This document shows, one piece after another, positions 1 through 49,628 of a stretch of 64,000 nt of DNA. The position numbers were made by a program, and so were the translations under genes. Under the pieces are notes generated by a model. That model worked only from the letters and a program-made list of their open reading frames with translations. It was not told where the DNA came from and did not search any database. Each line of letters starts with the position of its first letter. Within the stretch, counting starts at the first letter, position 1. The DNA lies in the NCBI GenBank assembly GCA_041389925.1, contig JAWKQX010000006.1, positions 279,837 through 343,836 of the forward strand, read 5' to 3'. Source of the stretch: Kofleriaceae bacterium. Its GTDB lineage: Bacteria; Myxococcota_A; Polyangia; Haliangiales; Haliangiaceae.

Positions 1-3000
1 GGCACCGAGGCCGGCGTGACCACGCCGAGCGCGGGGACCAACGTGGGCGCCGGCCGCTTCATCCCGGACGCCGATCCGAGCACCACCACCGACCCGTACA
101 ACCGAGACACCGATGACGGCGGGGTGCGCGACGGCGCGGAGGATCCGAACCACAACGGGCGGATCGACGCGGAGGAGCTCGATCCGAACAACCCCGCGGA
201 CGACGTCAGCCCGCTCGACACCGACGGCGACGGCGTGCCCGACGCCGAGGAGGAGGCCATCGGCACCGACCCGAACGATCCGGATAGCGACGACGACGGC
301 GTCCTCGACGGCGCGGAGCCGAGCTTCGCCGACGACAGCGATGGCGACGGCCTGATCAACGCGCTCGATCCCGACTCGGATGACGACGGTCTCTACGACG
401 GCACCGAGCTCGGCGTGACCACCGCCGGTCCGGGCACGGACGTCGCCGCGGGGCACTATGTCCCCGACGCCGATCCGAGCACGACCACCAACCCGCTCGC
501 CTACGACACCGACGGGGGCGGCGTCCACGACGGCGGCGAGGATCTCAACCGCGACGGCGCGGTGGACGCCGGCGAGCGCGATCCGCGGGCGCCCGGCGAC
601 GACACCACGCCGCCGAACGTCGACAGCGACGGCGACGGGCTCCCCGACGCCGCGGAGCTCGCGCTCGGCACGGATCCCAGCGACGCGGACACCGATGACG
701 ACGGCGTGCTCGACGGCGCCGAGGACAACTACGCCGATGACACGGACGGCGACGGCGTGATCAACGCGCTCGATCCCGACTCGGACAACGACGGCCTCTT
801 CGATGGCACCGAGCGCGGCATCGTGACGCCCGGGCCGGACACCGACGTCGGCGCGGGGCACTTCCGCGCGGATGCCGATCCGACGAGCGGCACCAGCATG
901 GTCGATCCGGATAGCGACGACGGCGGCGTGCCCGACGGCATCGAGGACGCGAACCGGAACGGTCGGGTCGACGGGACCGAGACGGATCCGAACGTCGGGT
1001 CCGACGACAACCTCGACGGCGATCAGGACGGCGACGGCATCCGCGACCTCGATGAGGGCGCCGGCGACACGGACGGCGACGGCACGCCGGACTTCCTGGA
1101 CACCGACTCCGACGACGATGGGATCTCCGACGCCGACGAGGCCGGTGACGCCGATCTGTCGACCCCGCCGGTGGACAGCGACGGCGACGGTGTCCCGAAC
1201 TTCCGCGACCTCGACTCGGACAACGACCTCCTGGCCGACGCCGACGAGGCCGGCGACCGCGACGTCGGGACGCCGCCGGTGGACAGCGACGAGGATGGCG
1301 CGCCGGACTACATCGATCTGGACTCCGACGACGACACCATCTCCGACGCCGACGAGGCCGGTGACTCGGACCTGTTCACGGTGCCGGTCGACACCGATGA
1401 GGACGGCACCCCGGACTACCTCGACAGCGACACGGACAACGACGGCCGGCCCGACTCCGAGGAGGCGGGAGACTCCGACCTGAACACGCCGCCGGTGAAC
1501 ACCGACGGCGAGGACGAGCCGGACTGGCGCGATCCCGACTCCGACAACGACGGCGTCGACGACGCGGTGGACAACTGCCGCCTGGTGGGAAACGGCGATC
1601 AGACGGACACGAACTCCGATGGCATCGGCGATGCGTGCCAGGACGACGTGGATGGCGATGGCGTGCTCAATATCCAGGACAACTGTCCGCTGGTCGCGAA
1701 CCCCGACCAGATGAACAGCGATGGCGCTGACGACGGCGGCGACCTGTGCGACGGCGACGACGACGACGACCTGGTCGACGACGAGGTGGACAACTGCCCG
1801 GTCGACGCCAACGCCGATCAGCTCAACACCGACGGCGCCGATGATGGCGGCGACGCCTGCGATCTCGACGACGACGACGACGGGATCGCGGACGCCTCCG
1901 ACAACTGTCCGATCAACGCCAACGCCGGCCAGGAGGACCTCGACGGCGACGGCGTGGGCGACCTGTGCGACCTCACCAACGACCTCGACACCGATCACGA
2001 TGCGACGCCGGACGTCGCCGACAACTGCCCGGAGACCGCGAACCCCGATCAGCGGGACGCGGACCGGGACGGCCTGGGCGACGCGTGCGACCCCGACGAC
2101 GACAACGACGGGTTCGACGACGACCTGACCGTCGCGGGGGGCGGGTGCTCGACCAGCGGGTCGCCGGGCGGCCTCACGGCGCTCTGTGCCCTGACGCTCC
2201 TGGCGCTGCTGCGGCGTCGGCGCCGGCGCGTCGCGGTGACCGCGGCGGGCGTCGCGGGCCTCGCCGTGGCCACCGCCGCGGCGCCCGCGGTGGCGCAGAC
2301 CCTCGCCGAGAGCCAGGACTTCCCAGCCGAGCGATTCCAGCTCTCCTCCTCACGCGATGGCGTGCTCAACGTGGAGGCGGCCACGATCCGCAGCGTCGGC
2401 GCCTGGGACGTCCACCTGTGGCTCGGCGACGCCAACGATCCGATCACGATCTCCCACGTCGACACTAACGGCGACACGCAGCGCGTCGGCTCGCTGATCA
2501 AGAACCGGTTCGGCGGCGAGCTCGGCGGCAGCGTCGTGGTGCTGCCGATGCTCTCCCTGGCCATCGATCTGCCCCTGGTGCTCGCGCAGGATCGCGACAG
2601 CTCCATCTCGGGCGTGTCATCGATGCTCTCGGACCTCGGCGGCGTCGGGCTGGGGGACCTCCGGCTGTCGCCCAAGCTGCGCGTCCTGCACCGGGCGCAG
2701 CACGGCGTGGACCTCGCCGTGCGCGGGCAGCTCACGCTGCCCACCGGGGCGGCGACCAACTATCGCGGCGAGGACGGTGTGAGCTTCTCTCCGTCGGTGA
2801 TGCTGTCGAGCCGGAGCGGCCCAGGGCGCTGGGTCGTGGATCTCGGCTACCTGATGCGACGCGAGTCCCAGGTCGCCGATCTGATGGTGGACGACGAGGT
2901 TCGCTTCCAGGTCGGAGGCGCGTACCGGGTGGCGAAGCCCGCCGAGCTCGGCGCGACGCTCTCGCTGGCGACCGCGGCCAACGACCTCTTCGGGAGCTCC

Positions 3001-4134
3001 TCGCGCAACCACTCCGAGCTCAACGCCGGGCCGACGTTCGAGGTCGGCGACCAGTGGGTGGTGTTCGCGGCCGCGGGGCTGGGGCTGCAGAACGGCTACG
3101 GCACGCCGGACTGGCGCGCGCTGGCCGGCCTGCGCATCGGCCGCCTCGGCGACGAGGCCGGCGCGGATGAGGCCGACGGCGACCGCGATCGGATCTTCGG
3201 CGCCGCCGACCGCTGCCCGGGTGAGCCCGAGGACTTCGATCAGTTCCAGGACGACGACGGCTGCCCGGATCCGGACAACGATCAGGACGGCATCCCGGAC
3301 GTCGCGGACCGCGCGCCGATGGAGCCGGAGGACAAGGACGGCTTCCAGGACGAGGACGGCGTGCCCGATCTCGACAACGACGGCGACGGCATGCCCGACT
3401 CGAGCGATCAGTGCGCCAACGAGCCGGAGACGCTCAACGGCTACCAGGACGACGACGGCTGCCCCGATCAGGCGGATCGCGACGGCGACGGGATCCCCGA
3501 CGCCTCCGACGGGTGCGCCGACGCCGCCGAGGACGTCGATGGCTTCGAGGACACCGACGGCTGCCCGGACACCGACAACGACGGCGACGGCGTGCCGGAC
3601 GCGAACGATCGCTGCCCGCTGGAGAAGGGGGTCGCGGAGAACGCGGGGTGCGTGGACACCGACGGCGACGGCGACGGCGTGGTGGACCGCCTGGACAACT
3701 GCCCCACGCAGAAGGGCGTGATGAAGTACGCCGGGTGCACCTCGGCGCAGGTGGTCACGCTCGACGGCAGCCAGCTCGGGCTCGTCGATCCGGTGTACTT
3801 CCAGACCAACCGTGACGTCATCCAGCGGCGCTCGTATCGGCTCCTCGACAACGTGGCCGCGGTCGTCTCGGCGCACCCCGAGGTCGGCAAGGTGACCGTC
3901 GAGGGCCACACGGACTCCGACGGCGACGACACCTCCAACCTGGAGCTGTCGCAGCGGCGCGCCGAGGCGGTGGTCGCGTACCTGGTCCGCAAGGGCGTCG
4001 ATCCCAGCCGCCTGATCGCCAAGGGCTACGGCGAGACGCAGCCGGTGACGACCAACGCGACCGCGAAGGGACGCGCCACCAACCGTCGCGTGGTGTTCAA
4101 GATCGCCGGGATCGAGTCGCGGAGCCCGCAGTAG
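1..4134 (+). CDS. Very large TSP3 (thrombospondin type-3, DxDxDGxxDxxD) Ca-binding repeat protein with a C-terminal OmpA-like domain. 5' partial, since the ORF is open to the window edge. Internally it carries a MYXO-CTERM-like sorting motif followed by a signal-peptide-like segment, so it is probably a fusion or frameshift of two genes.
   Basis: Continuous ORF 16..4134 with no upstream stop. Dozens of D-x-D-x-DG-x-x-D repeats. C-terminus 'TVEGHTDSDGDDTSNLELSQRRAEAVVAYLVRKGVDPSRLIAKGYGETQP...NRRVVFKI' is an OmpA/MotB peptidoglycan-binding signature. GC3 very high. Confidence 0.8.
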   Translation, partial: GTEAGVTTPSAGTNVGAGRFIPDADPSTTTDPYNRDTDDGGVRDGAEDPNHNGRIDAEELDPNNPADDVSPLDTDGDGVPDAEEEAIGTDPNDPDSDDDGVLDGAEPSFADDSDGDGLINALDPDSDDDGLYDGTELGVTTAGPGTDVAAGHYVPDADPSTTTNPLAYDTDGGGVHDGGEDLNRDGAVDAGERDPRAPGDDTTPPNVDSDGDGLPDAAELALGTDPSDADTDDDGVLDGAEDNYADDTDGDGVINALDPDSDNDGLFDGTERGIVTPGPDTDVGAGHFRADADPTSGTSMVDPDSDDGGVPDGIEDANRNGRVDGTETDPNVGSDDNLDGDQDGDGIRDLDEGAGDTDGDGTPDFLDTDSDDDGISDADEAGDADLSTPPVDSDGDGVPNFRDLDSDNDLLADADEAGDRDVGTPPVDSDEDGAPDYIDLDSDDDTISDADEAGDSDLFTVPVDTDEDGTPDYLDSDTDNDGRPDSEEAGDSDLNTPPVNTDGEDEPDWRDPDSDNDGVDDAVDNCRLVGNGDQTDTNSDGIGDACQDDVDGDGVLNIQDNCPLVANPDQMNSDGADDGGDLCDGDDDDDLVDDEVDNCPVDANADQLNTDGADDGGDACDLDDDDDGIADASDNCPINANAGQEDLDGDGVGDLCDLTNDLDTDHDATPDVADNCPETANPDQRDADRDGLGDACDPDDDNDGFDDDLTVAGGGCSTSGSPGGLTALCALTLLALLRRRRRRVAVTAAGVAGLAVATAAAPAVAQTLAESQDFPAERFQLSSSRDGVLNVEAATIRSVGAWDVHLWLGDANDPITISHVDTNGDTQRVGSLIKNRFGGELGGSVVVLPMLSLAIDLPLVLAQDRDSSISGVSSMLSDLGGVGLGDLRLSPKLRVLHRAQHGVDLAVRGQLTLPTGAATNYRGEDGVSFSPSVMLSSRSGPGRWVVDLGYLMRRESQVADLMVDDEVRFQVGGAYRVAKPAELGATLSLATAANDLFGSSSRNHSELNAGPTFEVGDQWVVFAAAGLGLQNGYGTPDWRALAGLRIGRLGDEAGADEADGDRDRIFGAADRCPGEPEDFDQFQDDDGCPDPDNDQDGIPDVADRAPMEPEDKDGFQDEDGVPDLDNDGDGMPDSSDQCANEPETLNGYQDDDGCPDQADRDGDGIPDASDGCADAAEDVDGFEDTDGCPDTDNDGDGVPDANDRCPLEKGVAENAGCVDTDGDGDGVVDRLDNCPTQKGVMKYAGCTSAQVVTLDGSQLGLVDPVYFQTNRDVIQRRSYRLLDNVAAVVSAHPEVGKVTVEGHTDSDGDDTSNLELSQRRAEAVVAYLVRKGVDPSRLIAKGYGETQPVTTNATAKGRATNRRVVFKIAGIESRSPQ
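2146..2238 (+). other. Internal MYXO-CTERM-like tripartite motif (GGCSTSG Cys motif, hydrophobic helix LTALCALTLLALL, then RRRRRR). It is immediately followed by a signal-peptide-like h-region ending AVA|QT, and by a GTG whose TGA (+1 frame) forms a GTGA overlap at 2236-2239.
   Basis: Translation of 2146-2300 reads CSTSGSPGGLTALCALTLLALLRRRRRRVAVTAAGVAGLAVATAAAPAVAQTL. The TGA at 2237-2239 lies in the +1 frame. Confidence 0.5.
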
Positions 4135-4230
4135 CGGCGCGCGCCTCGGGCGCGCCGCGGTCGGACCTTCGCGACGACGAAGGCCGATGCGGCAGTGGCG
4201 GAGCGGGCGCGTCGCTGCCAAACTAGGCCG

Positions 4231-4989
4231 ATGGTGCGCACCGACCGCGAGGGTCCCGTCACGATCGTGACCCTGGACCGCCCGGCCGTCCGCAACGCCG
4301 TCGACCGAGACACCGCCGCCGCGCTCGCGGCGGCGTTTCGCGCGTTCGAGGCGGACGACACGGCCTCGGTGGCGGTGTTGACCGGAGCCGGTGGGACGTT
4401 CTGCGCCGGCGCCGATCTCAAGGCCATCGCGGAGGGCCGCGGCAACCGGGTGGAGGCCGACGGCGACGCGCCGATGGGCCCCTCCCGCATGCTGCTGTCC
4501 AAGCCGGTGATCGCCGCGATCGCCGGCCACGCGGTGGCGGGCGGCCTGGAGCTGGCGCTGTGGTGCGACCTGCGCGTCGCGGAGGAGGACGCCACCCTCG
4601 GCGTGTTCTGCCGCCGCGTCGGCGTGCCGCTCATCGACGGCGGGACGGTGCGCCTGCCTCGCTTGATCGGGCTGTCGCGAGCGCTCGAGCTCATCCTCAC
4701 GGGGCGGCCCGTGGCGGCGCAGGAGGCGCTGGCGATCGGGCTGGTCCACCGCGTGGTGCCGAAGGGCGAGGCGCGAGCCGAGGCGATCGCGCTGGCACGC
4801 CAGCTCGCCGCGCTGCCGCAAGCGGCGCTCCGGGGGGATCGGCTCAGCGCCTACCAGCAGCACGAGCTCCCCCTGGCGGAGGCGCTGCAGCTCGAGCTGG
4901 ACCATGGGCGGCGCGCGCTGGCGGAGGGCGTCTCCAACGCGCAGCGCTTCGCCGCCGGGGCGGGGCGCCACGGACGCGAGCTGTCGTGA
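4231..4989 (+). CDS. Enoyl-CoA hydratase/isomerase (crotonase family)
   Basis: ATG at 4231. 'VTLDRPAVRNAV...VAVLTGAGGTFCAGADLKA' is crotonase-fold oxyanion-hole region. Length about 252 aa. Confidence 0.8.
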   Translation: MVRTDREGPVTIVTLDRPAVRNAVDRDTAAALAAAFRAFEADDTASVAVLTGAGGTFCAGADLKAIAEGRGNRVEADGDAPMGPSRMLLSKPVIAAIAGHAVAGGLELALWCDLRVAEEDATLGVFCRRVGVPLIDGGTVRLPRLIGLSRALELILTGRPVAAQEALAIGLVHRVVPKGEARAEAIALARQLAALPQAALRGDRLSAYQQHELPLAEALQLELDHGRRALAEGVSNAQRFAAGAGRHGRELS

Positions 4990-5291
4990 TCCGCGCGTCG
5001 GCCCTGCTGCTGGCGCTGGCGCTGGCCACCTCATCGTGTGCGCTGATCCGCGTGTTCACGGGCAACCGCGTCACCGGCACCTGCGACGGCGCCTGCGCGC
5101 ACTACATCGACTGCAAGCCGGGCGCGACCGTCGCCGATCGCCAGCGATGCGATCTGGAGTGCCCGCAGGTATTCGCGGATCGCAGCTCGCTGAGCATGTT
5201 CGAGCGCCTGACTTGCCCCGACGCGGTCAGCTACGTCGACGGAGATCCGCCCACCACTGCTGACACGCGGGTGCCGGCGCCCGCGCGCTGA
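4985..5291 (+). CDS. Small Cys-rich secreted lipoprotein, hypothetical
   Basis: GTG at 4985 overlaps the TGA of the crotonase gene (GTGA). Signal peptide with lipobox 'LALATSSC'. 8 Cys in about 100 aa. Confidence 0.5.
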
Positions 5292-5456
5292 GCCGCTGCT
5301 CCCGAACGAAGCAGGTGCTGCGAGGCGGCGCGTCGCCATGGAGCAGCCGTGGCGAGGGCAGCTCCAACCGCCCGGAACTCTTGCACAGCCAGCCTGGCAT
5401 CGCGCGTGCTTTAGCGGTAGCTCGCCGCGAAACGCGGCTTCGCAACAGGAGGCCTC

Positions 5457-6299
5457 ATGTCCAGTCCCTTGACCATTCGATTCTTTGGCGTGCGTGGCTC
5501 GGTCGCCACGCCGGGTGCGGCGTTCGCGGGCGTCGGCGGCAACACCGCCTGCGTCGAGGTCTCGGCCGGTGAGACGCGCATCGCGCTCGACGCCGGGACC
5601 GGGCTGCGCGCGCTCGGCGACGAGCGGATGCGCGCCGGGCTGCGCGAGCACACGATCCTGCTCTCCCACCTGCACTGGGATCACCTCCAGGGGCTGCCGT
5701 TCTTCACGCCGGTGTACGTCCCGGGGCACCGGGTGAACATCCTCTCGGGGCCGACCGGCGCGAAGCCGCTCACCGAGGCGCTGCCCTCGCTGTTCTCGGC
5801 GCCGTTCTTCCCGGTGGAGTTCGGCGTCGTCGCGGAGCAGATCACCCTCCGCGAGCTGCGGTCCTCGGAGCGCTTCACCGTTGGGGAGCTCTCGGTGACG
5901 ATGGCGCGGCTCAACCATCCGGATCCGGTCTACGGGTTTCGCCTCGAGGCCGGTGGGCGCTCGGTCGTGTACGCCACCGACACCGAGCACTACGCGTGCG
6001 TGGACCCGACGCTCGCGCGCCTCGCGGCCGACGCCGACGTGCTGATCTACGACTGCCAGTACGCACCGGAGGAGTACCCGACGCGGGTGGGGTGGGGCCA
6101 CTCGACGTGGCAGGCCGGCGTGGAGCTCGCGCGGGCGGCGCGCGTCTCGCAGCTCGTGTTGTTCCACCATGATCCGATGCGCACCGACGAGCAGGTCGCG
6201 GAGCTGGAGCGTCACGCGCGCGCCGCGTTCCCCGGCGCGATCGCCGCGCGAGAGGGGTTGGTGCTGGTCCCCGGAGAGGCGGAGCGTGTCGCCGCCTGA
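5457..6299 (+). CDS. MBL-fold metallo-hydrolase (beta-lactamase superfamily)
   Basis: '[17 protein letters not shown]' HxHxDH motif plus downstream His/Asp ligands. 280 aa. Confidence 0.8.
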
Positions 6300-6387
6300 G
6301 CCACACGTCGGGGCGCTCGGGTGGGGGATCCCGGCGGCGCAGGTCGACGAGGGCCGGCCTCCCGCACGCGCGGGGCGATCTCGCAGT

Positions 6388-7944
<1,557 letters not shown>

Positions 7945-8018
7945 CGCCGCGCACGGCGCGCGGAGAATCCCGGCGCGCAAATTGGCGAGGTCCCCGAACG
8001 CGCGGTACGGTCGGCGCC

Positions 8019-8582
8019 ATGCTGACGCACGTACGCACCCTCCGCACAGTCGCAGCCACGGTCGCGCTCGCGGCCGCGCCGTTGACCGCCGCGCGCGACG
8101 CCGCGGCGCAGCCCGCAGGCGAGGAGGAGGAATCCGCCAGCGATCGCCTCGAGCGCGGCGCCGAGAAGGGGACGTTCGGCATCGGGCTCTACATCGGCGA
8201 GCCGATCGGCGTCACCGCGAAGCTGTATCTCGAGGATGATCGCGCGGTGCAAGGCGCGATGGGCTTCGCGTTCGCCGGAGACGGCTTTCAGATCCACGGC
8301 GACTACGTGCTCCACCCGTACATCCTCCAGGACAAGGAGGAGTTCACGATGCCGGTGTACGTGGGCCCTGGCGTCAGGTTCATCCAGTACCGCGCGGGGC
8401 GCGACGGCGACCGCTACGTCGCGGTCGGCGCCCGCGCGGTCGCGGGCTTTCTGTTCGACTTCAAGGAGATCCCGCTCGACGCGTTCCTGGAGGTCGCCGG
8501 CGTGATCGAGTACGGCTTCGCGGATCGGGCGGGCTTCGGGCTGACGCTCAACGCCGGCGCCGGCGCCCGCTACTACTTCTGA
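8019..8582 (+). CDS. Small outer-membrane beta-barrel protein (signal peptide, C-terminal aromatic residue)
   Basis: Signal peptide 'VAATVALAAAPLTAARDAAAQ'. Alternating hydrophobic beta-strand pattern. Ends '...GAGARYYF'. Confidence 0.65.
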   Translation: MLTHVRTLRTVAATVALAAAPLTAARDAAAQPAGEEEESASDRLERGAEKGTFGIGLYIGEPIGVTAKLYLEDDRAVQGAMGFAFAGDGFQIHGDYVLHPYILQDKEEFTMPVYVGPGVRFIQYRAGRDGDRYVAVGARAVAGFLFDFKEIPLDAFLEVAGVIEYGFADRAGFGLTLNAGAGARYYF

Positions 8583-8607
8583 CGTCGCGGCTGGACGCGC
8601 GGGGCGC

Positions 8608-9033
8608 TCAGGCCGCGGCGACCAAGCGGAGCAGCTCATCGGAGCGCGCGAGCCCGAGCTTCTGGGCGGCGACCCGGCCACCGCGGACCACCACAAACGT
8701 CGGCACGCTCGTGATCCCGTAGCGCGACGCGATCGCCGGGAGCCGATCGATGTCGACCTCGACGACCGCGGCGCGACCGGCGAGCTGACCGGCGGCGCGC
8801 GCGACCTCGGGCGCGGCCATGCGGCAGGGACCGCACCAGGCAGCGGAGAAGTCGACGAGGATCGGCACGGGCGCCTCGCGCACCAGCTCATCGAAGGACG
8901 TCGCGTCGGCGATCTTGATCGTCGAGGAGGCCGCCGGAAGCGCGGTCTTGCACCGGCCGCAGCGCGCCTCATCGGCGACGCGGCGAGCCGGGACGCGGTT
9001 GGTGGCGCCGCAGGTTGGGCAGGTCCGGTTCAT
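8608..9033 (-). CDS. trxC: Thioredoxin, Trx2-type with N-terminal zinc-finger extension
   Basis: 'CPTCGATN...CGRCK' Zn-finger followed by the 'WCGPC' active site. 141 aa. Confidence 0.85.
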   Translation of the reverse strand: MNRTCPTCGATNRVPARRVADEARCGRCKTALPAASSTIKIADATSFDELVREAPVPILVDFSAAWCGPCRMAAPEVARAAGQLAGRAAVVEVDIDRLPAIASRYGITSVPTFVVVRGGRVAAQKLGLARSDELLRLVAAA

Positions 9034-9074
9034 GGCGACAACCTGGACACGCCGTGCGCCCTGTCAAGGTGCCT

Positions 9075-9300
9075 GCCGTGCACGTGGCGCGTTGCCGTGC
9101 ACGTGGTGCACCGCGGTCCGTGTGTCCCGCCGTGCACCTGGGGCCCGTGGCACACAGGTGCTCCTCGGTGCCCGTGGCACACGTGGCGCACGTGGCACAC
9201 GTGGCGCACGTGGCACACGTGGCGCACGTGGCGCACGTGGTGCACGTGGTGCACGCAGTTCACGCGGTCCCCCACCGTGCACCTGGTGCACGTGGCGCGC
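9075..9300. repeat. Array of 12 or more CACGTG-containing 9-bp units (CACGTGGCG/CACGTGGCA/CACGTGGTG), 9 of them perfectly tandem at 9174-9254. Lies in the divergent intergenic region between trxC and the S8 protease gene.
   Basis: Direct reading: gtggcacacgtggcgcacgtggcacacgtggcgcacgtggcacacgtggcgcacgtggcgcacgtggtgcacgtggtgcacgc, plus flanking degenerate copies at 9082, 9106 and 9282. Confidence 0.9.
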
Positions 9301-9456
9301 AGCACTCGTGCAGGTGGTGTACGGCAGAGCACGCGAGCGAAAAAAACAGCCGCGCTGTCCAATCGCTCCGGCCACTCGCGTAGGTCGAGTTGTCGCGCGG
9401 CCTCGCTCCCTCGCTGGATGAGGCGCGCTTGATGCCACTCACTTTTGGGGGATGCC

Positions 9457-11442
9457 ATGTCTCGTTCTCGTGCTGCAGTTTCACGTCTCGGGCTCACCTG
9501 CTCGTTGTTGAGCGTCGGACTCTTGGGTTGTAACGGAGAGCCCGCCGACGTCGGCAGGGTCGGGGCGAGGAGCGCCGTCGCTCACGCGCTCACCAGCGGC
9601 GACGATCCGCTGGACGCTCCCCAGGAGCTCCTCGATGCCGCGCGCGAGCTGCTCGGCGCGCGGCTCGGTCAGGATCCGGCGACCCTCGTCATCACCAACG
9701 CCGCGCCAGTGACGTTCCCGCTGCTGCAGCGCAGCCTCTATCGGTTCAAGGCGCTCGATGGTCGCGGCGACGTCCAGTCGATCGCGCTCAACAACAACGG
9801 GACGCGCGAGGAGGACTTCGAGGCGCTTGAGGGGCTCGAGGCCTCGCTGTACCAGCAGGATCACGGACAGCTCACGCCCGATCTGGCCGAGCAGCTCGCG
9901 GTGCTCCCCGACGAAGAGGAGATCGAAGTCGCGATCCAGGCGCTCGTTCCGCAGGGTGACTCCGGCGGGCCCATGCGCCCCGATCCCTCGACGAACCTCT
10001 CGGACTCGGAGGTGGACGCCTTGTACACGGCGGTGGACGCGCACCGCTCCGAGGTCGCGCGGGTGCTGACCGCGCCGATCAAGCAGCGGCTCGGAGGTCT
10101 GGGCTATCAGGGGGAGGCGGACGCGCTCGCGCCGATCGTGCACGTCAAGCTCCCCGTCCACCTGATCCGAGAGGCGGCGCGCTGGAATGACGTCAGCAAG
10201 ATCTTCGCGTCCGCGACCTACGAGTCGACGATGAACGTCGCGCGCGCGACCGTCGAGGCGGACGTCGTGAACTCGCGAGGCATCACGGGGACCGGGGTTC
10301 GCGTCGCCGAGATCGAGGTCGGCGGCATGCTCCCTGCGGCCAACCCGTTCCTCGCGGGGACGACGCAGGATCCGGTGTCCGCGTGCTTTCATCCTCACGC
10401 GACCTGGGTCGCGGGCACGATCCGCAGCACGCACGCGACCATCCGCGGGGTCTCGCCCGACGTCAACCTGCGCGTGGGCGGCTCCTGCGCGGGCTCCGGT
10501 TCGCAGCTGGTCAGTCGCTCCACCGCGGCGTCGAGCTGGGGCGCGCGCGCGTTCAACTTGAGCTTCGGGAGCAACGCGGGCACGCAGCCCGGCGCGCTCG
10601 ACAACTACTACGACGACCTGGTGCAGAACGGCTGGCGTACGGTGGTGGTGTCCGCGGGCAACTCGGGTCCGTCGGCGATCGTCGGCAGCCCGGGGCGGGC
10701 CTACAACGTGCTGACGGTCGGCGCGATCGATGATCACAACACGATCCCGTGGCTCGGCGACACGATGAGCACGTTCTCGAGCTCGCTTGATCCCGTGTCG
10801 TTGCACGGCGATCGCGAGAAGCCGGAGGTGGTGGCGCCGGGCACGAGCATCACGACGACGTCGCCGACGTCGCCGTGGGTGGGCGCGACGGTCTCCGGCA
10901 CGAGCTTCTCGGCGCCCATCACCACGGGCTCCGCGGCGCTGCTCATGCGGCGGTCGTCCGGATTGCAGGTCTGGCCAGAGGCGGTGAAGGCGATCTTGAT
11001 GGCCACCGCGGTCCACAACGTCGAAGGCGCGACGCGCCTGAGCGAGCGCGACGGCGCGGGGGCGATCGTCGACGGTCTCGCGGACGACATCGCCCACGGC
11101 GTCAGCGGGAACTGGGGAGGGCGCGCGTACTCCTGCGGGGTCCCGACGATCCAGAACGTCACGACCATGTCGCTCGTCTCCAATCGCGTCACGCGAGTCG
11201 CGGTCACGTGGGACACCAACCCGAGCTACAACCAGTATGCCGGCCAGCCGAGCGCCGATCTCGATGTCACGATCCTCGGTCCCTCGGGTGCCGTCGTCGC
11301 GGGCTCGGGGAGCTGGGACAACCCGTACGAGATGATCGAGTTCACGGCGCCGGTGACCGGCACATACACCGTGCGCGTCCACAAGTACCGCTGCAGCCTG
11401 ACCCCGAAGTGGCTGGGCTGGGCGTGGTACCAGAACTACTGA
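9457..11442 (+). CDS. Secreted subtilisin-like serine protease (peptidase S8) with lipoprotein-type signal peptide and C-terminal beta-rich domain
   Basis: Lipobox 'LLGC'. Asp/His/Ser triad contexts: 'VRVAEIEVGG' (D), 'HATWVAGT' (H), 'GTSFSAPITTGSAALL' (S). GGGGGA SD-like sequence 8 bp upstream of ATG 9457. A TTG at 9445 is also possible. Confidence 0.85.
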   Translation: MSRSRAAVSRLGLTCSLLSVGLLGCNGEPADVGRVGARSAVAHALTSGDDPLDAPQELLDAARELLGARLGQDPATLVITNAAPVTFPLLQRSLYRFKALDGRGDVQSIALNNNGTREEDFEALEGLEASLYQQDHGQLTPDLAEQLAVLPDEEEIEVAIQALVPQGDSGGPMRPDPSTNLSDSEVDALYTAVDAHRSEVARVLTAPIKQRLGGLGYQGEADALAPIVHVKLPVHLIREAARWNDVSKIFASATYESTMNVARATVEADVVNSRGITGTGVRVAEIEVGGMLPAANPFLAGTTQDPVSACFHPHATWVAGTIRSTHATIRGVSPDVNLRVGGSCAGSGSQLVSRSTAASSWGARAFNLSFGSNAGTQPGALDNYYDDLVQNGWRTVVVSAGNSGPSAIVGSPGRAYNVLTVGAIDDHNTIPWLGDTMSTFSSSLDPVSLHGDREKPEVVAPGTSITTTSPTSPWVGATVSGTSFSAPITTGSAALLMRRSSGLQVWPEAVKAILMATAVHNVEGATRLSERDGAGAIVDGLADDIAHGVSGNWGGRAYSCGVPTIQNVTTMSLVSNRVTRVAVTWDTNPSYNQYAGQPSADLDVTILGPSGAVVAGSGSWDNPYEMIEFTAPVTGTYTVRVHKYRCSLTPKWLGWAWYQNY

Positions 11443-11614
11443 TCAAACGACGCGAGCGCCCACCTGCTCCGCGAGGCCAGGCCTCGCTAGCGGGTCGCTG
11501 CCTGCGAGGAGGCCCGACGAGCCGCGAAAGCTCGGCGGGCGAGGGCGTCGCTGGCGCAGGTCGCGGCGGGCACCTGCCCGCGCCGCTCCGCGCGCGAGGC
11601 CTGGCGTCCGCGGC

Positions 11615-12760
11615 TCAGCCGTCGAGGCAGGTGCCGTAGCGGATGCTCTGCACGCGCGCGCTCCCGACCGCCCGGGCGAAGCCGCCCCAGAACGAGAAGT
11701 TCGTCCCGTAGGTGTGGACGTGCACCCTGGTGGTCAGGAATGACGAGCTCGCGTGATGGAAGGAGCAGGTGCTCGTCACCGTCGTGGGGCGGTTGTCGAA
11801 GAGATAGCCGAACGGGATCCAGCGATCGAGCACCGGCGTGGTGCAGCTCGCCACCCGCCGGCCCGAGTCGAAGGTCTCGATGGTGACCGCCACGCCGCTG
11901 CCGACGTAGGAGAGCTGCCAGAGAAATAGCTCCGCGAAGTTGGACGGGAGGCTCACGGTCGCGGTCACCACGGTCGTGCCCGCGCCCGCCGGCGGGATGT
12001 TGTCCGCGCGCACCCAGCCGCCGACGCCGGACGCGCCGATGAGGACGTTCGACTCGGAGCGGATCGTCCCGTTGCGGCTGACCGCGGGGAGGTTGGCGGA
12101 GTTGACCCCCCACCACCAGTTGCCGGCCTGGAAGTACGGCGGGAAGGGCTCGAACTCGAAGCCCGTCGAGCAGCCCGCGCGCGTCTGCGGCCCGCCCTGC
12201 GTCACCCCCCGCGGCTCGGGCGGCGGCGCGTCTCCAAACGCGACCCGGCGCACCTCTTCGCTGAGGGCCTCCGACGTCGTGCCCATGTAGTCCATCGCCT
12301 TCTGGATGAGCGGGCCTCGCTCCTCGCCGAAGCGCTCGAGCGCGACGTGGATCTCCTTGGAGTCGGCGAGCTTGCTGATCTCCACGATCTCCGCCTGGAG
12401 ATCCGCGTAGCTGAGGCCGGACGTCTCGCGGAGCGCGAGATCGAGCTGCGGCGCGATCTTCTCGTCGACGTACTGCTGCGCGCGCGCGCCGGCGGCGATG
12501 AGGTCGGCGGTGAACTCCGGCGGCGTCTCGCTCGGCGGATCTTCGACGCGCAGCGCGCTCACCTCGGCGGCGCCGAGCGGCGCGCTCGCGGGCTCGGCCT
12601 GGACCGTCGGGGTGTCCGACGTGACGCCGTCGCTCTCGGCACACGCGCCGAAGCCCAGGCAAGCGGTCAACGTCAGCGCGAGCGCTCGGGCGGCGCGACC
12701 GCGGGACTGGGGAGGCGACGTAGGACGCGACGTAGATAGATGGAACTCGACCTTGCTCAT
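11615..12760 (-). CDS. Hypothetical secreted lipoprotein
   Basis: ATG at 12760 (MSKVEF...). Lipobox 'LTACLGFGAC'. No recognisable catalytic motif. C-terminal half is Trp/Gly/Thr-rich and beta-like. Confidence 0.6.
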   Translation of the reverse strand: MSKVEFHLSTSRPTSPPQSRGRAARALALTLTACLGFGACAESDGVTSDTPTVQAEPASAPLGAAEVSALRVEDPPSETPPEFTADLIAAGARAQQYVDEKIAPQLDLALRETSGLSYADLQAEIVEISKLADSKEIHVALERFGEERGPLIQKAMDYMGTTSEALSEEVRRVAFGDAPPPEPRGVTQGGPQTRAGCSTGFEFEPFPPYFQAGNWWWGVNSANLPAVSRNGTIRSESNVLIGASGVGGWVRADNIPPAGAGTTVVTATVSLPSNFAELFLWQLSYVGSGVAVTIETFDSGRRVASCTTPVLDRWIPFGYLFDNRPTTVTSTCSFHHASSSFLTTRVHVHTYGTNFSFWGGFARAVGSARVQSIRYGTCLDG

Positions 12761-13032
12761 GATGGTTGTCCTCGAAAGTGCCAGGGCAGCGAGCAGCGCA
12801 GCCCCTGAGCCGCTCACGTGCATTCGCGAGCCGGCTGGCTGTCGAGAAACAAGGCGACGCGTGCGACGTCGCGTTACACGCAGACGCGAAGAAATCGGCA
12901 AGTCGCCGTGAGATCTGGTCCCTGGCGACCGGCGGGCGATCAGGGGGGCCGGGCGTGGCGACGGGTCGTCACGCGTGCGCGCGGCGGCCGTGGCTAGCAC
13001 GGGTCAGCGCGAGTCGCTGCGCCGCGCCTTCG

Positions 13033-13257
13033 TCAGGCCTCGGCTTCGTCGTCGCGCGCCGGGGGCTTCTCGAAGTCGGTGCGGTTGTGCGACCCATCGC
13101 AGATGGGCGCGCTGGCGGTGTGCCCGCAGCGGCAGAGCAGGACTCGCGTGCGGCCCTCGAGATCGATGAGGTTGCCATCGAGCCCGTACAGCTCGCACGG
13201 ACCGGCCAGCTCGACGGCGAGGGGGCCGCGCGCCTTGGGGCGGATGCGCACGCTCAC
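13033..13257 (-). CDS. CDGSH-type iron-sulfur domain protein (mitoNEET-like [2Fe-2S])
   Basis: 'CRCGHTASAPICDGSHNRT' is the canonical C-x-C-x(8)-C-DGSH motif. GTG start at 13257-13255 overlaps the TGA stop of the upstream globin gene (GTGA). Confidence 0.75.
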   Translation of the reverse strand: MSVRIRPKARGPLAVELAGPCELYGLDGNLIDLEGRTRVLLCRCGHTASAPICDGSHNRTDFEKPPARDDEAEA

Positions 13258-13895
13258 GTCGGTGCTCCCGCCAGGGCGCTCGTGCTGGCGTCGCTCGCGG
13301 CGGCCTCGTCGTCGACGCCGGTCGCGTGCGCGCACGCGCTACAGCGCGTCTCGCCGGTGCGCAAGTGATACCAGGCGGTGGCGTCGATCTCCACGATCGC
13401 GGCGCAACGATCGCAGATCCCGCCGGCGCTCATCGCGGTCGCCTTCCACCCCTCGAGCGGCATGGCCACGCCGTTGCGCTTGCGCGGGAACGGGGCGCTC
13501 TTGACGATGTTGGCGCGGAAGGACTCGTCGATCCTGCGGAAGTCCGCGATCAGGGCCTCGCTGAGGCCGTGCTCGCGGAGCACCTGCGCCATCAGGGCCT
13601 CGCGGTAGTCGAAGAGCTCGTTGGAGATGACCATCCAGTGGTGCGCGTTGCGCGGGCGGTCTCCGAAGTAGCAGTCTTCGCCGGTGAGGATCTGGCGGAG
13701 GAACGCGTATTGATGATCGATCGCCCACGCCTTGGTGGTGTTCACGAAGAACGGCGCGAGACGCGGATCTCGATACACGCGCTCGTAGAACTCGATCAGG
13801 ATGGTGCGAAGCAACGCGCCGCGATCGAACGCCTCCCAGAGCGCTGGGTGGGGCTCGAGCGCGCGCCGACGAGAGTGGGCCTCTGTTGCGCTCAT
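13254..13895 (-). CDS. Truncated haemoglobin (trHb/2-on-2 globin) with C-terminal CxxC...CxxC zinc-ribbon extension
   Basis: 'FYERVYRDPRLAPFFVNTTKAWAIDHQYAFLRQILTGEDCYFG...NAHHWMVISNELFDYREALM' matches the trHb B/E/F-helix pattern. C-terminal 'CDRCAAIVEIDATAWYHLRTGETRCSAC'. Confidence 0.7.
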   Translation of the reverse strand: MSATEAHSRRRALEPHPALWEAFDRGALLRTILIEFYERVYRDPRLAPFFVNTTKAWAIDHQYAFLRQILTGEDCYFGDRPRNAHHWMVISNELFDYREALMAQVLREHGLSEALIADFRRIDESFRANIVKSAPFPRKRNGVAMPLEGWKATAMSAGGICDRCAAIVEIDATAWYHLRTGETRCSACAHATGVDDEAAASDASTSALAGAPT

Positions 13896-14349
13896 GCCTC
13901 CAGGCTAGCACCGCACCTCGAGGACCCTCAGCGCCAAATCGGGTTGCCGTCGGGTAGCGCGGCAAGGGACCGCAGCCTCGCCGCCGCAGCGGGTGTGCTC
14001 TCCGAGGCAGCCCTCGGCGTTCTTCGCGCGAACCGAGAGGTCCTCCGTGTGCCGCCCGCGCAGCTTGTGTGCGCGGCACCGACGCGCGACCACGATGATC
14101 TCGGGAGCCGCGCGTGCGATGTCCAAGCTCGGTCCGTCGTCGTCCCGTTGCTCGCGTCGCCCCGCGGGCCAGGGCTCCTCGCAGGGGGCGGCTTCTTCGC
14201 CGACGACTTGCGGGGCCGGCGCGCGCGCGCTCGCTGAGAGGACTGGCCACGTGGCGCGAGCGTCGGCGCGGCGTGCTACTACCGCGTCCGTGAGCGAGCG
14301 TGCGCACGGCTACCCCGCTGCGGAGTCCTGGGGCTTTGATCGCCGCGCC

Positions 14350-15033
14350 ATGGTTGCGCTGGGGCGTGAGCGCGCCGCGCAGTATCGCGACGCGCAGCCG
14401 TATCCGCACGTGGTAGTCGACGGCCTGCTGGGCGACGCGCGATCGGCGGCGCTGGCGGGAGCCTTCCCGCGACCGGACCACCCGGGCTGGAAGCGACGCG
14501 ACTACGCGGAGCAGGCCGGGCGGCTGGGGCAGCTCCAGCGCAGCGGCTTCGACGGCGTGGCGGCCGGTCTGCGCGTCCTGCTCGCCGAGCTCTGCGGGAT
14601 GGCGTTCCTCGATTTCCTGGCCGCGCTGACCGGGCGTCGCGACCTGATCGCGGATCCGCACTATACCGGCGCGGGGCCGATGGCCACGCTGCCCGGCGGA
14701 CACCTGGCGTTGCACACGGACTTCAACCGGGACAGCGCGCGCCGTCTGGACCGAGCCGTCACGGCGCTCTACTACGTGCCGATCTCCTGGGACGAGGACT
14801 GGGGCGGTGAGCTCGAGCTGTGGGACCGCGCGCGCACGCGCTGCGAAGTGAAGATCGCGCCGGTGCGAGACCGGCTGGTCGTGATGGCCTACGGCGAGGA
14901 CCACTGGCACGGCCATCCGTCACCGCTGCGCTGCCCGGACAGCGAGCTGCGCGCGGTGGTGGCCGCGTACTACTACGCGGCGCGCGCCAACCCCGAGGAC
15001 GAAGCGCGCGCACACGGCGCGATCTGGACCTGA
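14350..15033 (+). CDS. 2OG-Fe(II) oxygenase family protein (PhyH/prolyl-hydroxylase-like)
   Basis: HxD...H ligands 'HTDFNRD' and 'HWHGHP'. 'HVVVDGLL' N-terminal motif. Start ambiguous: ATG 14350, or GTG 14290 or further upstream. The long antisense ORFs here are artefacts. Confidence 0.6.
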   Translation: MVALGRERAAQYRDAQPYPHVVVDGLLGDARSAALAGAFPRPDHPGWKRRDYAEQAGRLGQLQRSGFDGVAAGLRVLLAELCGMAFLDFLAALTGRRDLIADPHYTGAGPMATLPGGHLALHTDFNRDSARRLDRAVTALYYVPISWDEDWGGELELWDRARTRCEVKIAPVRDRLVVMAYGEDHWHGHPSPLRCPDSELRAVVAAYYYAARANPEDEARAHGAIWT

Positions 15034-38634: not shown

Positions 38635-38800
38635 CGCGTCGTCGCGCGGTCCGCGGGCGAGCGTCTGCGGGCGCGAGCGGCGAGGCGTCGTCGCGCGGTC
38701 CGCGGGCGAGCGTCTGCGGGCGCGGGCGGCGAGGCGTCGTCGCGCGGTCCGCGGGCGAGCGCCGAAGGCGCCGGCTGCGTCGCCGCGCGGTCCGCGCACC
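38635..38800. repeat. Tandem direct repeat, 50-bp unit x about 3.3, in the intergenic region just upstream of comEC
   Basis: gcgtcgtcgcgcggtccgcgggcgagcgtctgcgggcgcgRgcggcgag at 38635, 38685 and 38735 (third copy diverges after 28 bp, with a partial fourth). Confidence 0.9.
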
Positions 38801-47828: not shown

Positions 47829-49628
47829 GTGAAAAAATGCGTTCAATGCACGAAAGATCTCCCCGACGCCGCTCATCATTGCGTGTTCTGCGGCTCTAAG
47901 CAGCCCGCGCAGGCGCCCGCGGAGATCGCCCGCACGGTGATGGGCTACTCCGCCAACCAAGTCCGCGACCACGCCGCCGCCGCCGCGGCGATGGCCCCTC
48001 GTCATCCGCCGAGCGCGCCGCCGCCGATGGGCGGCCCTGCGGTGGGGCCGGCGATGTCGGCGGGGCGGCACCCGCCGAGCGCGCCGCCGCCGATGGGCGG
48101 CCCCGCGGCGGGGCCGGCGATGTCGGCGGGGCGGCACCCGCCGACCGCGCCGCCGCCGATGGGCGGCCCCGCGGCAGGGCCCGCGATGTCGGCGGGACGT
48201 CATCCGCCGACCGCGCCGCCGCCGATGGGCGGCCCCGCGGCAGGGCCCGCGATGTCGGCGGGACGTCATCCGCCGAGCGCGCCGCCGCCGATGGGCGGCC
48301 CTCCGAACCCGGCGTTCGGCGGGCCCGGCTTCGGCGGCCCCGGTGCGCCGGGCGGCTATCCGGCTGCCCCGAGCGCGCCCGCGTTCCCACCTCCGGCCGC
48401 GGCGAACGCCGCGACGATGTTCGCGCCGTCGAGCGGCGGCCCTGGGCCGCAGCCGCAGTCCCCCGCCGCCGGGGGCAGCGCGGCGTCCCCGGCGCCGCTG
48501 GCCGCGACGATGGCCGCGCCGCTGCCCGTGTTCCCCGCCAGCACGGCAGGGGCGTATCAGGCGCAGCCGTCGGGGCCCTCGGGGTATCCGCCTGCGGGCG
48601 CCTCGTATCAAGCCGGCGCGTACCACGCGCAGGGCGGTGGCTACGGCGCCCCCGGCGGCGGTGGCTACGGCGCGCCCGGCGGCGGTGGCTACGGCGCCCC
48701 CGGCGGCGGTGGCTACGGCGCGCCCGGCGGCGGTGGCTACGGCGCCCCCGCGGGAGGCTACGGCGCCCCCGGCTACGCGTCTGGACCGTCGACGCCGATG
48801 CACCAGCCGGCGTACCTGGCCTCGGAGACCGCGGATCGCGCCGCGCGCCCGATCGACCCTTACCGCGATGGCCTGCGCCTGGTGCTCTTCGCGTTCGGCA
48901 TCCTGCTCCTCGGCGCGTTTTGCACCCCGCTGTCCAACGATCTCACCTTCCACTGGAACGTCGTGATCGACGCACCCACCACCGCGAAGGTCGCGTCCCT
49001 GCTGCTCGCCGTCGTCGGGGCGCTCTCGATCATCCTGGCCTCGACGCCGCTCGCCAGTCCGCTCCGCGGCGGCCTGGCCGCCGGGCTCGGGCTGCTCGGC
49101 CTCATCGCGCCGCTGGCCTTGGCGAAGGTCTCCGAGTGGCGGCTGCTCGTCGCCGCCTTGGTGCCCATGCTCCTGATCCCCGGGTTGCTCCTGCGCCAGG
49201 AGTATCGCGAGCAGCTCCTGCCGCGCCTCTTGGCCACGCTCGGCGTGCTCGGCGCGCTGGCGATCTGGCTCGTGCCGAGCGGCGACGCGCTGCCGCTCGT
49301 CGCGACGGTCAAGGCGGTCGTCGACGCCAGCGGCGTCGGGAAGGTCCCGCACCTGCTGGAGCTCGTGCACCTGGTGGTCATCGTGCTCTGCCTGCTGGTC
49401 TGGCTCCCCGCACCCTCGGGCGCCGGCGCCAAGCTCCTGGCCTGGCTGCTCATCTTCTGGGCCGCGCTGATGCACTTCCAGATGCTGATCCTCTCGGAGA
49501 ACCTGGGGGAGCAGCTCAAGGCGACGCCCTTCGATAGCGCGATGTCCTGGGCGCCGGGCGTCGCGTACCTCGCGCTCCTCGGCTACGGCCTCGCGGCGGC
49601 GCTCGGCAAGCAGCTCGAGACCGCATGA
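47829..49628 (+). CDS. Zinc-ribbon protein with Pro-rich 20-aa repeats (x5), GGGYGAP repeats (x5) and a C-terminal multi-pass TM domain
   Basis: GTG 47829 in an AT-rich context (gtg aaa aaa tgc gtt caa tgc acg aaa gat). 'CVQCTKDL...HHCVFCG'. DNA repeats: 60-bp x5 at 47990-48300 and 15-bp x5 at 48640-48760. About 6 hydrophobic helices C-terminally. Confidence 0.65.
   Translation: MKKCVQCTKDLPDAAHHCVFCGSKQPAQAPAEIARTVMGYSANQVRDHAAAAAAMAPRHPPSAPPPMGGPAVGPAMSAGRHPPSAPPPMGGPAAGPAMSAGRHPPTAPPPMGGPAAGPAMSAGRHPPTAPPPMGGPAAGPAMSAGRHPPSAPPPMGGPPNPAFGGPGFGGPGAPGGYPAAPSAPAFPPPAAANAATMFAPSSGGPGPQPQSPAAGGSAASPAPLAATMAAPLPVFPASTAGAYQAQPSGPSGYPPAGASYQAGAYHAQGGGYGAPGGGGYGAPGGGGYGAPGGGGYGAPGGGGYGAPAGGYGAPGYASGPSTPMHQPAYLASETADRAARPIDPYRDGLRLVLFAFGILLLGAFCTPLSNDLTFHWNVVIDAPTTAKVASLLLAVVGALSIILASTPLASPLRGGLAAGLGLLGLIAPLALAKVSEWRLLVAALVPMLLIPGLLLRQEYREQLLPRLLATLGVLGALAIWLVPSGDALPLVATVKAVVDASGVGKVPHLLELVHLVVIVLCLLVWLPAPSGAGAKLLAWLLIFWAALMHFQMLILSENLGEQLKATPFDSAMSWAPGVAYLALLGYGLAAALGKQLETA

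Follow-up and report, generated by a model that had tools for sequence, protein, structure and literature searches.

A 9-bp tandem repeat between divergent thioredoxin-2 and S8 protease genes of a Kofleriaceae bacterium is probably a slippage-generated minisatellite

Results

The array lies between divergent thioredoxin-2 and S8 protease genes

We analysed a window of 64,000 nucleotides (64 kb; the whole stretch of DNA under consideration) in which an array of 9-bp repeats sits in a 423-bp spacer between divergently oriented genes for a thioredoxin-2 (minus strand) and an S8 protease (plus strand). The intergenic position and the two flanking genes were as given in the preliminary description of this DNA. 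The features of the region are the following:

8608 to 9033, minus strand: thioredoxin-2 gene, N-terminal zinc ribbon plus thioredoxin domain (P0113, 100% identity, Kofleriaceae MAG)
9075 to 9087, plus strand: 13-mer box GCCGTGCACSTGG, copy 1, from a box scan of the window
9094 to 9106, plus strand: 13-mer box, copy 2, same scan
9097 to 9295, no strand: whole degenerate 9-bp array, about 22 copies according to TRF (70% match, 8% indels)
9129 to 9141, plus strand: 13-mer box GCCGTGCACCTGG, copy 3, same scan
9173 to 9249, no strand: 18-bp superperiod CGTGGCACACGTGGCGCA, 4.3 copies according to TRF (96% match)
9174 to 9254, no strand: perfect tandem core of nine head-to-tail GTGGYRCAC units (81 bp), with the variants in the order GCA GCG GCA GCG GCA GCG GCG GTG GTG
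9175 to 9226, plus strand: three sigma-54-like sequences TGGCACACGTGGCGCA at 9175, 9193 and 9211, with −24/−12 spacing (9.6 bits each with an approximate matrix)
9274 to 9286, plus strand: 13-mer box, copy 4, one mismatch, same scan
9356 to 9382, plus strand: bipartite motif TGTCCAA-N16-CGTA (full form CTGTCCAATYGC-N12-GCGTARG, extending to 9384), common to the homologous loci L061 and L066
9457 to 11442, plus strand: S8 (subtilase) lipoprotein protease gene, Peptidase_S8 plus PPC domains, signal peptide ending in LLGC

The first repeat box lies 42 bp from the thioredoxin-2 start codon. On the other side of the spacer, the S8 ATG at 9457 has a Shine-Dalgarno-like GGGGGA just upstream. Like the thioredoxin, the S8 protein is 100% identical to an NCBI protein from a Kofleriaceae MAG. 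In the public annotation, the S8 protein (639 aa, P0001) begins at 9523, that is, 22 codons late, and thereby loses the lipoprotein signal peptide MSRSRAAVSRLGLTCSLLSVGLLGC. To the left of the thioredoxin-2 gene lie a 187-aa gene without an assigned function and, at 6169-7944, a gene for a GAF-AAA+-HTH_8 sigma-54 activator, which is directly preceded by a gene for an MBL-fold hydrolase (5457-6299).

Two further elements were noted in and around the spacer. A perfect 13-bp inverted repeat (AGCGCGCCTCATC at 8961-8973 and GATGAGGCGCGCT at 9417-9429) brackets the entire intergenic region, with one arm in the zinc-ribbon codons of the thioredoxin gene and the other 28 bp ahead of the S8 ATG. This inverted repeat could be the product of chance, and no recombinase gene was found near it in the annotated stretch 1-15033. 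At 9338-9360, close to the S8 −35 box on its upstream side, an A7/T7 run lies beside a weak hairpin of 5-7 bp; the run is highly unusual for a genome of 72% GC and is terminator-like on the minus strand.

The array consists of a perfect core with decayed edges

The sequence CACGTGGYR occurs exactly 20 times in the 64-kb window compared with an expectation of 3.8 ± 2.0, and none of 100 dinucleotide-preserving shuffles reached 20, which confirms the earlier statement that the array is not random sequence. Eleven of the 20 exact matches lie at 9081-9297, and units with one mismatch at 9144, 9171, 9280 and 9311 bring the total to 15 units with a span of 9081-9319. The count of at least 12 copies in the preliminary description therefore holds when near-copies are included (15) but not for exact copies (11). 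Its nine perfect head-to-tail copies at 9174-9254 were recovered exactly in the register GTGGYRCAC; counted as CACGTGGYR, the perfect units number eight (9180-9251). Outside the array, 21 CACGTG sites are spread over approximately 63.7 kb, with approximately 23.6 expected for the whole window, and the hexamer is thus not enriched there.

The 18-bp superperiod within the core stems from the alternation of GCA and GCG units and shows that the array has partly grown in two-unit steps. The succession of variants, (GCA GCG)x3, GCG, GTG GTG, implies at least three separate duplication events. The core is flanked by decayed units with 1-5 mismatches that are still in register (9126-9173 and 9252-9269), and copies that are frame-shifted by indels occur further out. 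Because the perfect core grades into decayed edges in this way, slippage or unequal recombination is favoured as the source of the array. Each unit contains the palindrome CACGTG, which overlaps with GTGCAC in the GTG units, and neighbouring units could pair.

Copies 1 and 2 of the 13-mer box are parts of a 19-bp duplication (family D5), and the box was not found elsewhere in the 64-kb window, save for one match with one mismatch that is at the level of chance. Among the repeats in the window with a TRF score of at least 70, the array is the sole non-coding one, with 92% of the window being genic according to a crude GC3-based gene call. Young tandem repeats within called ORFs were observed at 38636-38761 (49 bp, 2.6 copies, 98% identity) and at 48006-48301 (66 bp, 4.5 copies, 96% identity). 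Because a period of 49 bp is not divisible by three, either the gene call is wrong at the former position or the reading frame is shifted by the repeat.

Several known classes of repeats and elements were considered and rejected. A coding function, which would yield a His-Val-Ala repeat peptide, does not fit the base composition: because the GC3 of the ORFs that cross the array (0.54-0.79) falls below the value of 0.90 in the real genes next to it, the array is non-coding. A structured (leader) RNA or a cruciform was discarded because folding was no better than that of shuffled sequences, with z-scores for single-strand folds (DNA or RNA, either strand) of −0.29, −0.51 and −1.14, and because every match in an Rfam search of the array region was far under its gathering threshold. 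CRISPR arrays need repeats of 23-50 bp with unique spacers of similar length, and the units of the array are contiguous 9-mers without spacers, so the exclusion of CRISPR in the preliminary description stands. The possible terminal inverted repeats of a MITE at 9073-9083 and 9317-9327 largely derive from the palindromic repeat itself, and the window contains no second copy of such an element. The 16-bp palindrome parS (TGTTNCACGTGNAACA), which is bound by ParB, shares a central CACGTG with the array, and parS sites can cluster; however, the 9-bp period of the array leaves no room for the GTT and AAC arms, and none of the 32 CACGTG sites in the window has these arms.

Assemblies of the same organism break within the core

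The window derives from a short-read MAG, and its assembled copy number is provisional. Exact-protein look-ups retrieved only two Logan assemblies, both of the same organism (SRR28338160 and SRR28338158). Their contigs have flanks identical to the window and, on either side of the array, terminate within the 18-bp periodic core. Because a graph with k=31 is expected to break at such a place, these contig ends are uninformative with regard to copy-number variation. A metagenome scan for the left junction of the array found no other strain.

That contigs from two runs end within the periodic core on both sides would also be expected if the array, its copy number or the joining of the thioredoxin and S8 genes had been made by the metagenome assembler. 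We regard such an artefact as very unlikely. Both Logan flanks reach 30-50 bp into the same periodic sequence with an 18-nt overlap, which fits a single locus that was collapsed at k=31. Moreover, the periodic stretch (~58 bp) and the core (81 bp) are shorter than the reads and hence resolvable, and the degenerate outer copies are unique and identical across all assemblies.

The 9-mer array recurs in unrelated genomes without promoter bias

We scanned one genome per species, covering 185,579 species, with a query of 2.7 units; the source genome is outside this set. GYRCACGTG-type arrays of this length were detected at 55 loci, mostly in Actinomycetota and additionally in Chloroflexota, Proteobacteria, Planctomycetota, Acidobacteriota, Bacteroidota, a Polyangia MAG and a Sorangium. 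A metagenome scan with a threshold of at least 4.7 units yielded 12 loci, some of them on contigs of 44-47% GC, and the occurrence of arrays on such low-GC contigs means that the 9-mer repeat is not confined to high-GC bacteria.

Approximately half of the arrays from the genome scan were located inside ORFs according to crude GC3 gene calls, and the intergenic arrays occupied convergent, tandem and divergent spacers. At least seven (L010, L016, L020, L033 and L052-L054) lie in convergent (3′-3′) spacers and for that reason cannot be promoters. Flanking the longest arrays (L005, L016, L020, L021, L038 and L046) were genes unrelated to one another, which encode SHMT, an ECF sigma factor, a class I tRNA synthetase, an M50 peptidase, a sortase, a hydrolase, kynureninase, PurK and a histidine kinase. 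Overall, the 9-mer array is a rare, recurrent simple repeat with neither a promoter bias nor a common neighbourhood, and the arrays in unrelated phyla arose independently. Dispersal of this kind, with no positional bias to promoters, is the outcome that the preliminary description had named as speaking against its reading; here it was observed across genomes rather than within the source genome.

Two actinobacterial MAGs, LS2_sbin.26 (L001, L027 and L055) and MFD02840.bin.2.33 (L002, L014 and L032), contain several (GTGCACGTG)n arrays each, and these arrays have similar flanks, being followed, for example, by GCACCGCAC repeats. This suggests that these two MAGs hold a dispersed repeat-element family, unlike the single locus in the window. 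In the metagenome Ga0126342 (L071, L075 and L077; GC 0.44-0.47), we observed long (CACGTGGCA)n arrays on contigs that are possibly eukaryotic.

The putative S8 promoter lies outside the array

The bipartite motif at 9356-9384 occurs once in the 64-kb window, 100 bp downstream of the tandem core. Copies of it are present upstream of two S8 homologs at non-syntenic loci, at approximately 3891-3919 in L061 and 3907-3935 in L066. In all three loci, the motif TGTCCAAT(C/T)GC-N12-GCGTA(A/G)G has the same spacing, and the sequence of the spacer differs. Relative to the start codons, CTGTCCAAT(C/T)GC-N12-GCGTA(A/G)G is located at −99 in the window, −110 in L061 and −94 in L066. The architecture of TGTCCAA-N16-CGTA resembles that of the ECF41 promoter TGTCACA-n16-CGTC (PMC3426412), and the motif displays the characteristics of ECF-type promoters, namely, a CGT in the −10 element, a spacer of approximately 16 nt, conserved boxes and a variable spacer sequence. 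With its conserved boxes and unconserved spacer, the motif resembles the ECF-sigma promoter of a small protease regulon, and judging from its sequence, it is probably the ECF-sigma-type core promoter of the S8 gene. A scan for sigma-70-like promoters in 8900-9600 found no promoter-like site.

Neither L061 nor L066 has a CACGTG or GTGCAC in the 500 bp upstream, and their upstream spacers are shorter (231 and 203 bp, respectively, versus 423 bp in the window). Because these two loci share the motif and lack the array, the array represents extra length that is outside the conserved regulatory unit of the protease family. The preliminary description had placed the array in the shared promoter space of the two genes, a claim that we could not sustain, as the putative S8 promoter lies downstream of the array and two homologs possess the motif without it; the array is located outside both the ORFs and the core promoter motif at 9356-9382. 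More distant S8 homologs (L060 and L082-L084) have neither motif nor array. Upstream regions (500 bp) of the S8 homologs L060, L061 and L066 and of the thioredoxin homologs L068 and L069 contain 0-1 CACGTG and no GTGCAC.

No syntenic orthologous locus was found among the S8 homologs (68-48% identity; L060-L067 and L082-L084) or among the thioredoxin-2 homologs (L068 and L069; nearest at ~60%, with two Kofleriaceae MAGs among the closest). The gene neighbourhoods of the closest S8 homologs (68, 59 and 60% identity) are unrelated to that of the window. Because the homologous loci are non-syntenic, the intergenic region cannot be aligned.

Discussion

The array has TRF periods of 9 and 18 and nine perfect units, and its unit count was matched in none of 100 shuffles. 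In our view, the array is probably a minisatellite that is specific to this lineage, was generated by slippage and lengthens the spacer between the thioredoxin-2 and S8 genes, most likely without a dedicated function; both the slippage origin and the neutrality are what we infer from the anatomy of the repeat. A GYRCACGTG 9-mer would have been multiplied by repeated replication slippage or unequal recombination. An older set of copies, including the 19-bp duplication, would then have decayed and now occupy 9075-9170 and 9252-9320, and a recent re-expansion in steps of 18 and 9 bp would have generated the perfect 81-bp core. In this process, the array would have inserted approximately 200 bp between the thioredoxin-2 start codon and the S8 promoter at 9356-9382. 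At most, its copy number may alter the distance and the helical phase between the element that drives thioredoxin expression and sequences on the far side.

Bacterial intergenic minisatellites or VNTRs such as mycobacterial MIRU-VNTR likewise consist of short head-to-tail units that lie in non-coding spacers of high-GC genomes, with a perfect core, decayed edges and an origin by slippage or recombination. In contrast to MIRU-VNTR, the unit of the array is only 9 bp (18 bp for the superunit) and self-complementary, and as far as is visible, the array is a single locus rather than a dispersed family. Some observations are less comfortable for a functionless minisatellite. Genes take up 92% of the window, and the array has no second non-coding tandem repeat beside it there; it sits in a divergent regulatory spacer, in which expression could conceivably be under selection to be tunable; and the four same-strand 13-mer boxes could be operator sites instead of decayed units. 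One sequence, moreover, cannot show neutrality.

These boxes are one reason to consider an iterated operator, in which a dimeric regulator of the CACGTG/GTGCAC palindromes or of the 13-mer GCCGTGCACSTGG would coat the region and control the thioredoxin gene, the S8 gene or both. Four 13-mer boxes on the same strand and 15 nine-mer units are packed into 250 bp, only 0.8 chance matches to the 13-mer are expected in the whole window, and every unit offers two overlapping palindromes. However, no orthologous locus with a conserved motif was found, S8 homologs with the same core promoter are entirely without it, and the 64 kb contain no second site. The 9-bp period sets successive palindromes approximately 51 degrees apart, which is unfavourable for the regular cooperative stacking of dimers, and a perfect core with decaying edges is the product of mutation and slippage and not of selection on single sites. 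We found no bacterial factor with CACGTG specificity in the literature, where the 9-mers led only to primers and to papers on the eukaryotic E-box. The CACGTG E-box is the site of eukaryotic bHLH and bHLH-ZIP factors, and we know of no such factor in Myxococcota; the array has only the hexamer in common with it, a resemblance of strings. An operator array is thus unlikely, and the proposal of a cooperative binding platform at E-box-like sites finds no backing in syntenic conservation, in enrichment elsewhere in the window or in the E-box family, which is eukaryotic. More faint still is the case for a triplicated sigma-54 promoter, a reading that we judge highly improbable, in which the GCA/GCG alternation yields three phased TGGCAC-N5-GCGCA sequences directed toward S8 and the 13-mer boxes serve as upstream activating sites. 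The window has just three TGGCAC-N7-GCW matches, all of them within the array and correctly spaced (GG-N10-GC), a GAF-AAA+-HTH_8 activator is encoded 1.1 kb away (6169-7944), and the boxes are located 50-130 bp upstream. The −24 element TGGCAC and the spacing are therefore as in sigma-54 promoters, but the −12 element is GCGCA and not TTGCW, the TT being missing, and the score does not stand out: with a PWM that approximates the published sigma-54 consensus, the three TGGCACACGTGGCGCA sites (9.6 bits) rank approximately 17th-19th in the window, the overlapping site TGGCGCACGTGGTGCA at 9229 scores 10.1 bits (approximately 11th), and a stronger site, TGGCATCGCGCGTGCT at 5395, reaches 12.9 bits. 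Furthermore, the leader would run for 230-280 nt, the S8 gene already has the conserved ECF-like promoter motif, and the three matches amount to one event copied by the repeat, so we judged them to be coincidental. A structural DNA element, a Z-DNA- or cruciform-prone sink for negative supercoils between divergently transcribed genes, is the most improbable of the readings considered here. The 9-mer alternates between purines and pyrimidines over nine bases, interrupted solely at the GG step, and between these divergent genes the array shows the highest alternation among all 84-bp stretches of the window (0.89 versus a mean of 0.55). Yet this alternation follows automatically from the sequence of the unit, the blocks are just 9 bp long with an out-of-alternation junction in each unit, hairpin stems measure only 6 bp and single strands fold like shuffles, and equivalent arrays in other genomes also lie outside divergent spacers.

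A functionless minisatellite also has to be weighed against a contingency or rheostat repeat, in which slippage alters the number of units and thereby tunes the expression of thioredoxin-2, S8 or both via spacing and phasing. The nine perfect units with their 18-bp superperiod form an intrinsically unstable tract, and in this respect, namely, its slippage-prone nature, the earlier idea of a hotspot was sound. The array is also well placed, upstream of both the thioredoxin gene (by 42-270 bp) and the S8 −35 element (by 100-280 bp). In Neisseria, upstream tracts of repeats act in this contingency mode, and to our knowledge, copy-number contingency loci have so far been described almost only from host-adapted bacteria. 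The host of the array is a free-living myxobacterium without known contingency loci. Variable promoter repeats have been described in M. tuberculosis, likewise a high-GC bacterium, where tandem repeats of promoter elements at dop, lpdA and cysG have a phase-variable copy number, the dop unit being 57 bp (PMC12817950). These repeats are like the array in that they lie in tandem upstream of genes in a GC-rich bacterium and could change expression via copy number; they differ from it in that the array has a unit of 9 bp and an identifiable S8 promoter outside its limits. Contingency tracts of the Neisseria meningitidis type lie in ORFs or core promoters of host-adapted bacteria and have units of 1-7 bp (PMC5084427). 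The array shares with them a perfect tract of short units near the 5′ ends of genes, but its unit is 9 bp, it is outside the one recognisable core promoter, and it resides in a free-living soil or sediment myxobacterium. No copy-number variation was seen in the two Logan assemblies, both of which are broken in the array, and no other strain was found; the putative S8 core promoter is outside the array; and the same repeats occur elsewhere in 3′-3′ spacers and within ORFs. A contingency function is consequently rather unlikely. We consider it quite unlikely that the array is a selected, copy-number-tunable module that multiplies a sigma-54-type element or a CACGTG/GTGCAC operator upstream of the S8 lipoprotein protease and thioredoxin genes. 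Overall, we found no evidence for the array as a protein-binding platform or a switch.

Apart from the array, the sigma-54-like site TGGCATCGCGCGTGCT at 5395-5410 (plus strand) has the GG-N10-GC spacing. It lies in a spacer of 467 bp, with 62 bp between it and the MBL-fold gene downstream, and is followed by a good ribosome-binding site. This site is more likely than the array to be a target of the activator, and the genes for the MBL-fold hydrolase and the GAF-AAA+-HTH_8 protein may form an autoregulated operon.

As it stands, the minisatellite is one more intergenic tandem repeat of little import, and it marks a break point of short-read assemblies at which the copy number is uncertain. If the array were a tunable module after all, slippage in steps of 9 or 18 bp would give a free-living myxobacterium a heritable and reversible expression rheostat; a copy number that varied and affected expression would mean that a predatory or social soil bacterium tunes its expression through repeats. 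Analysis of the array also brought to light an ECF-like promoter motif that is conserved in a clade of S8 lipoprotein proteases from myxobacteria.
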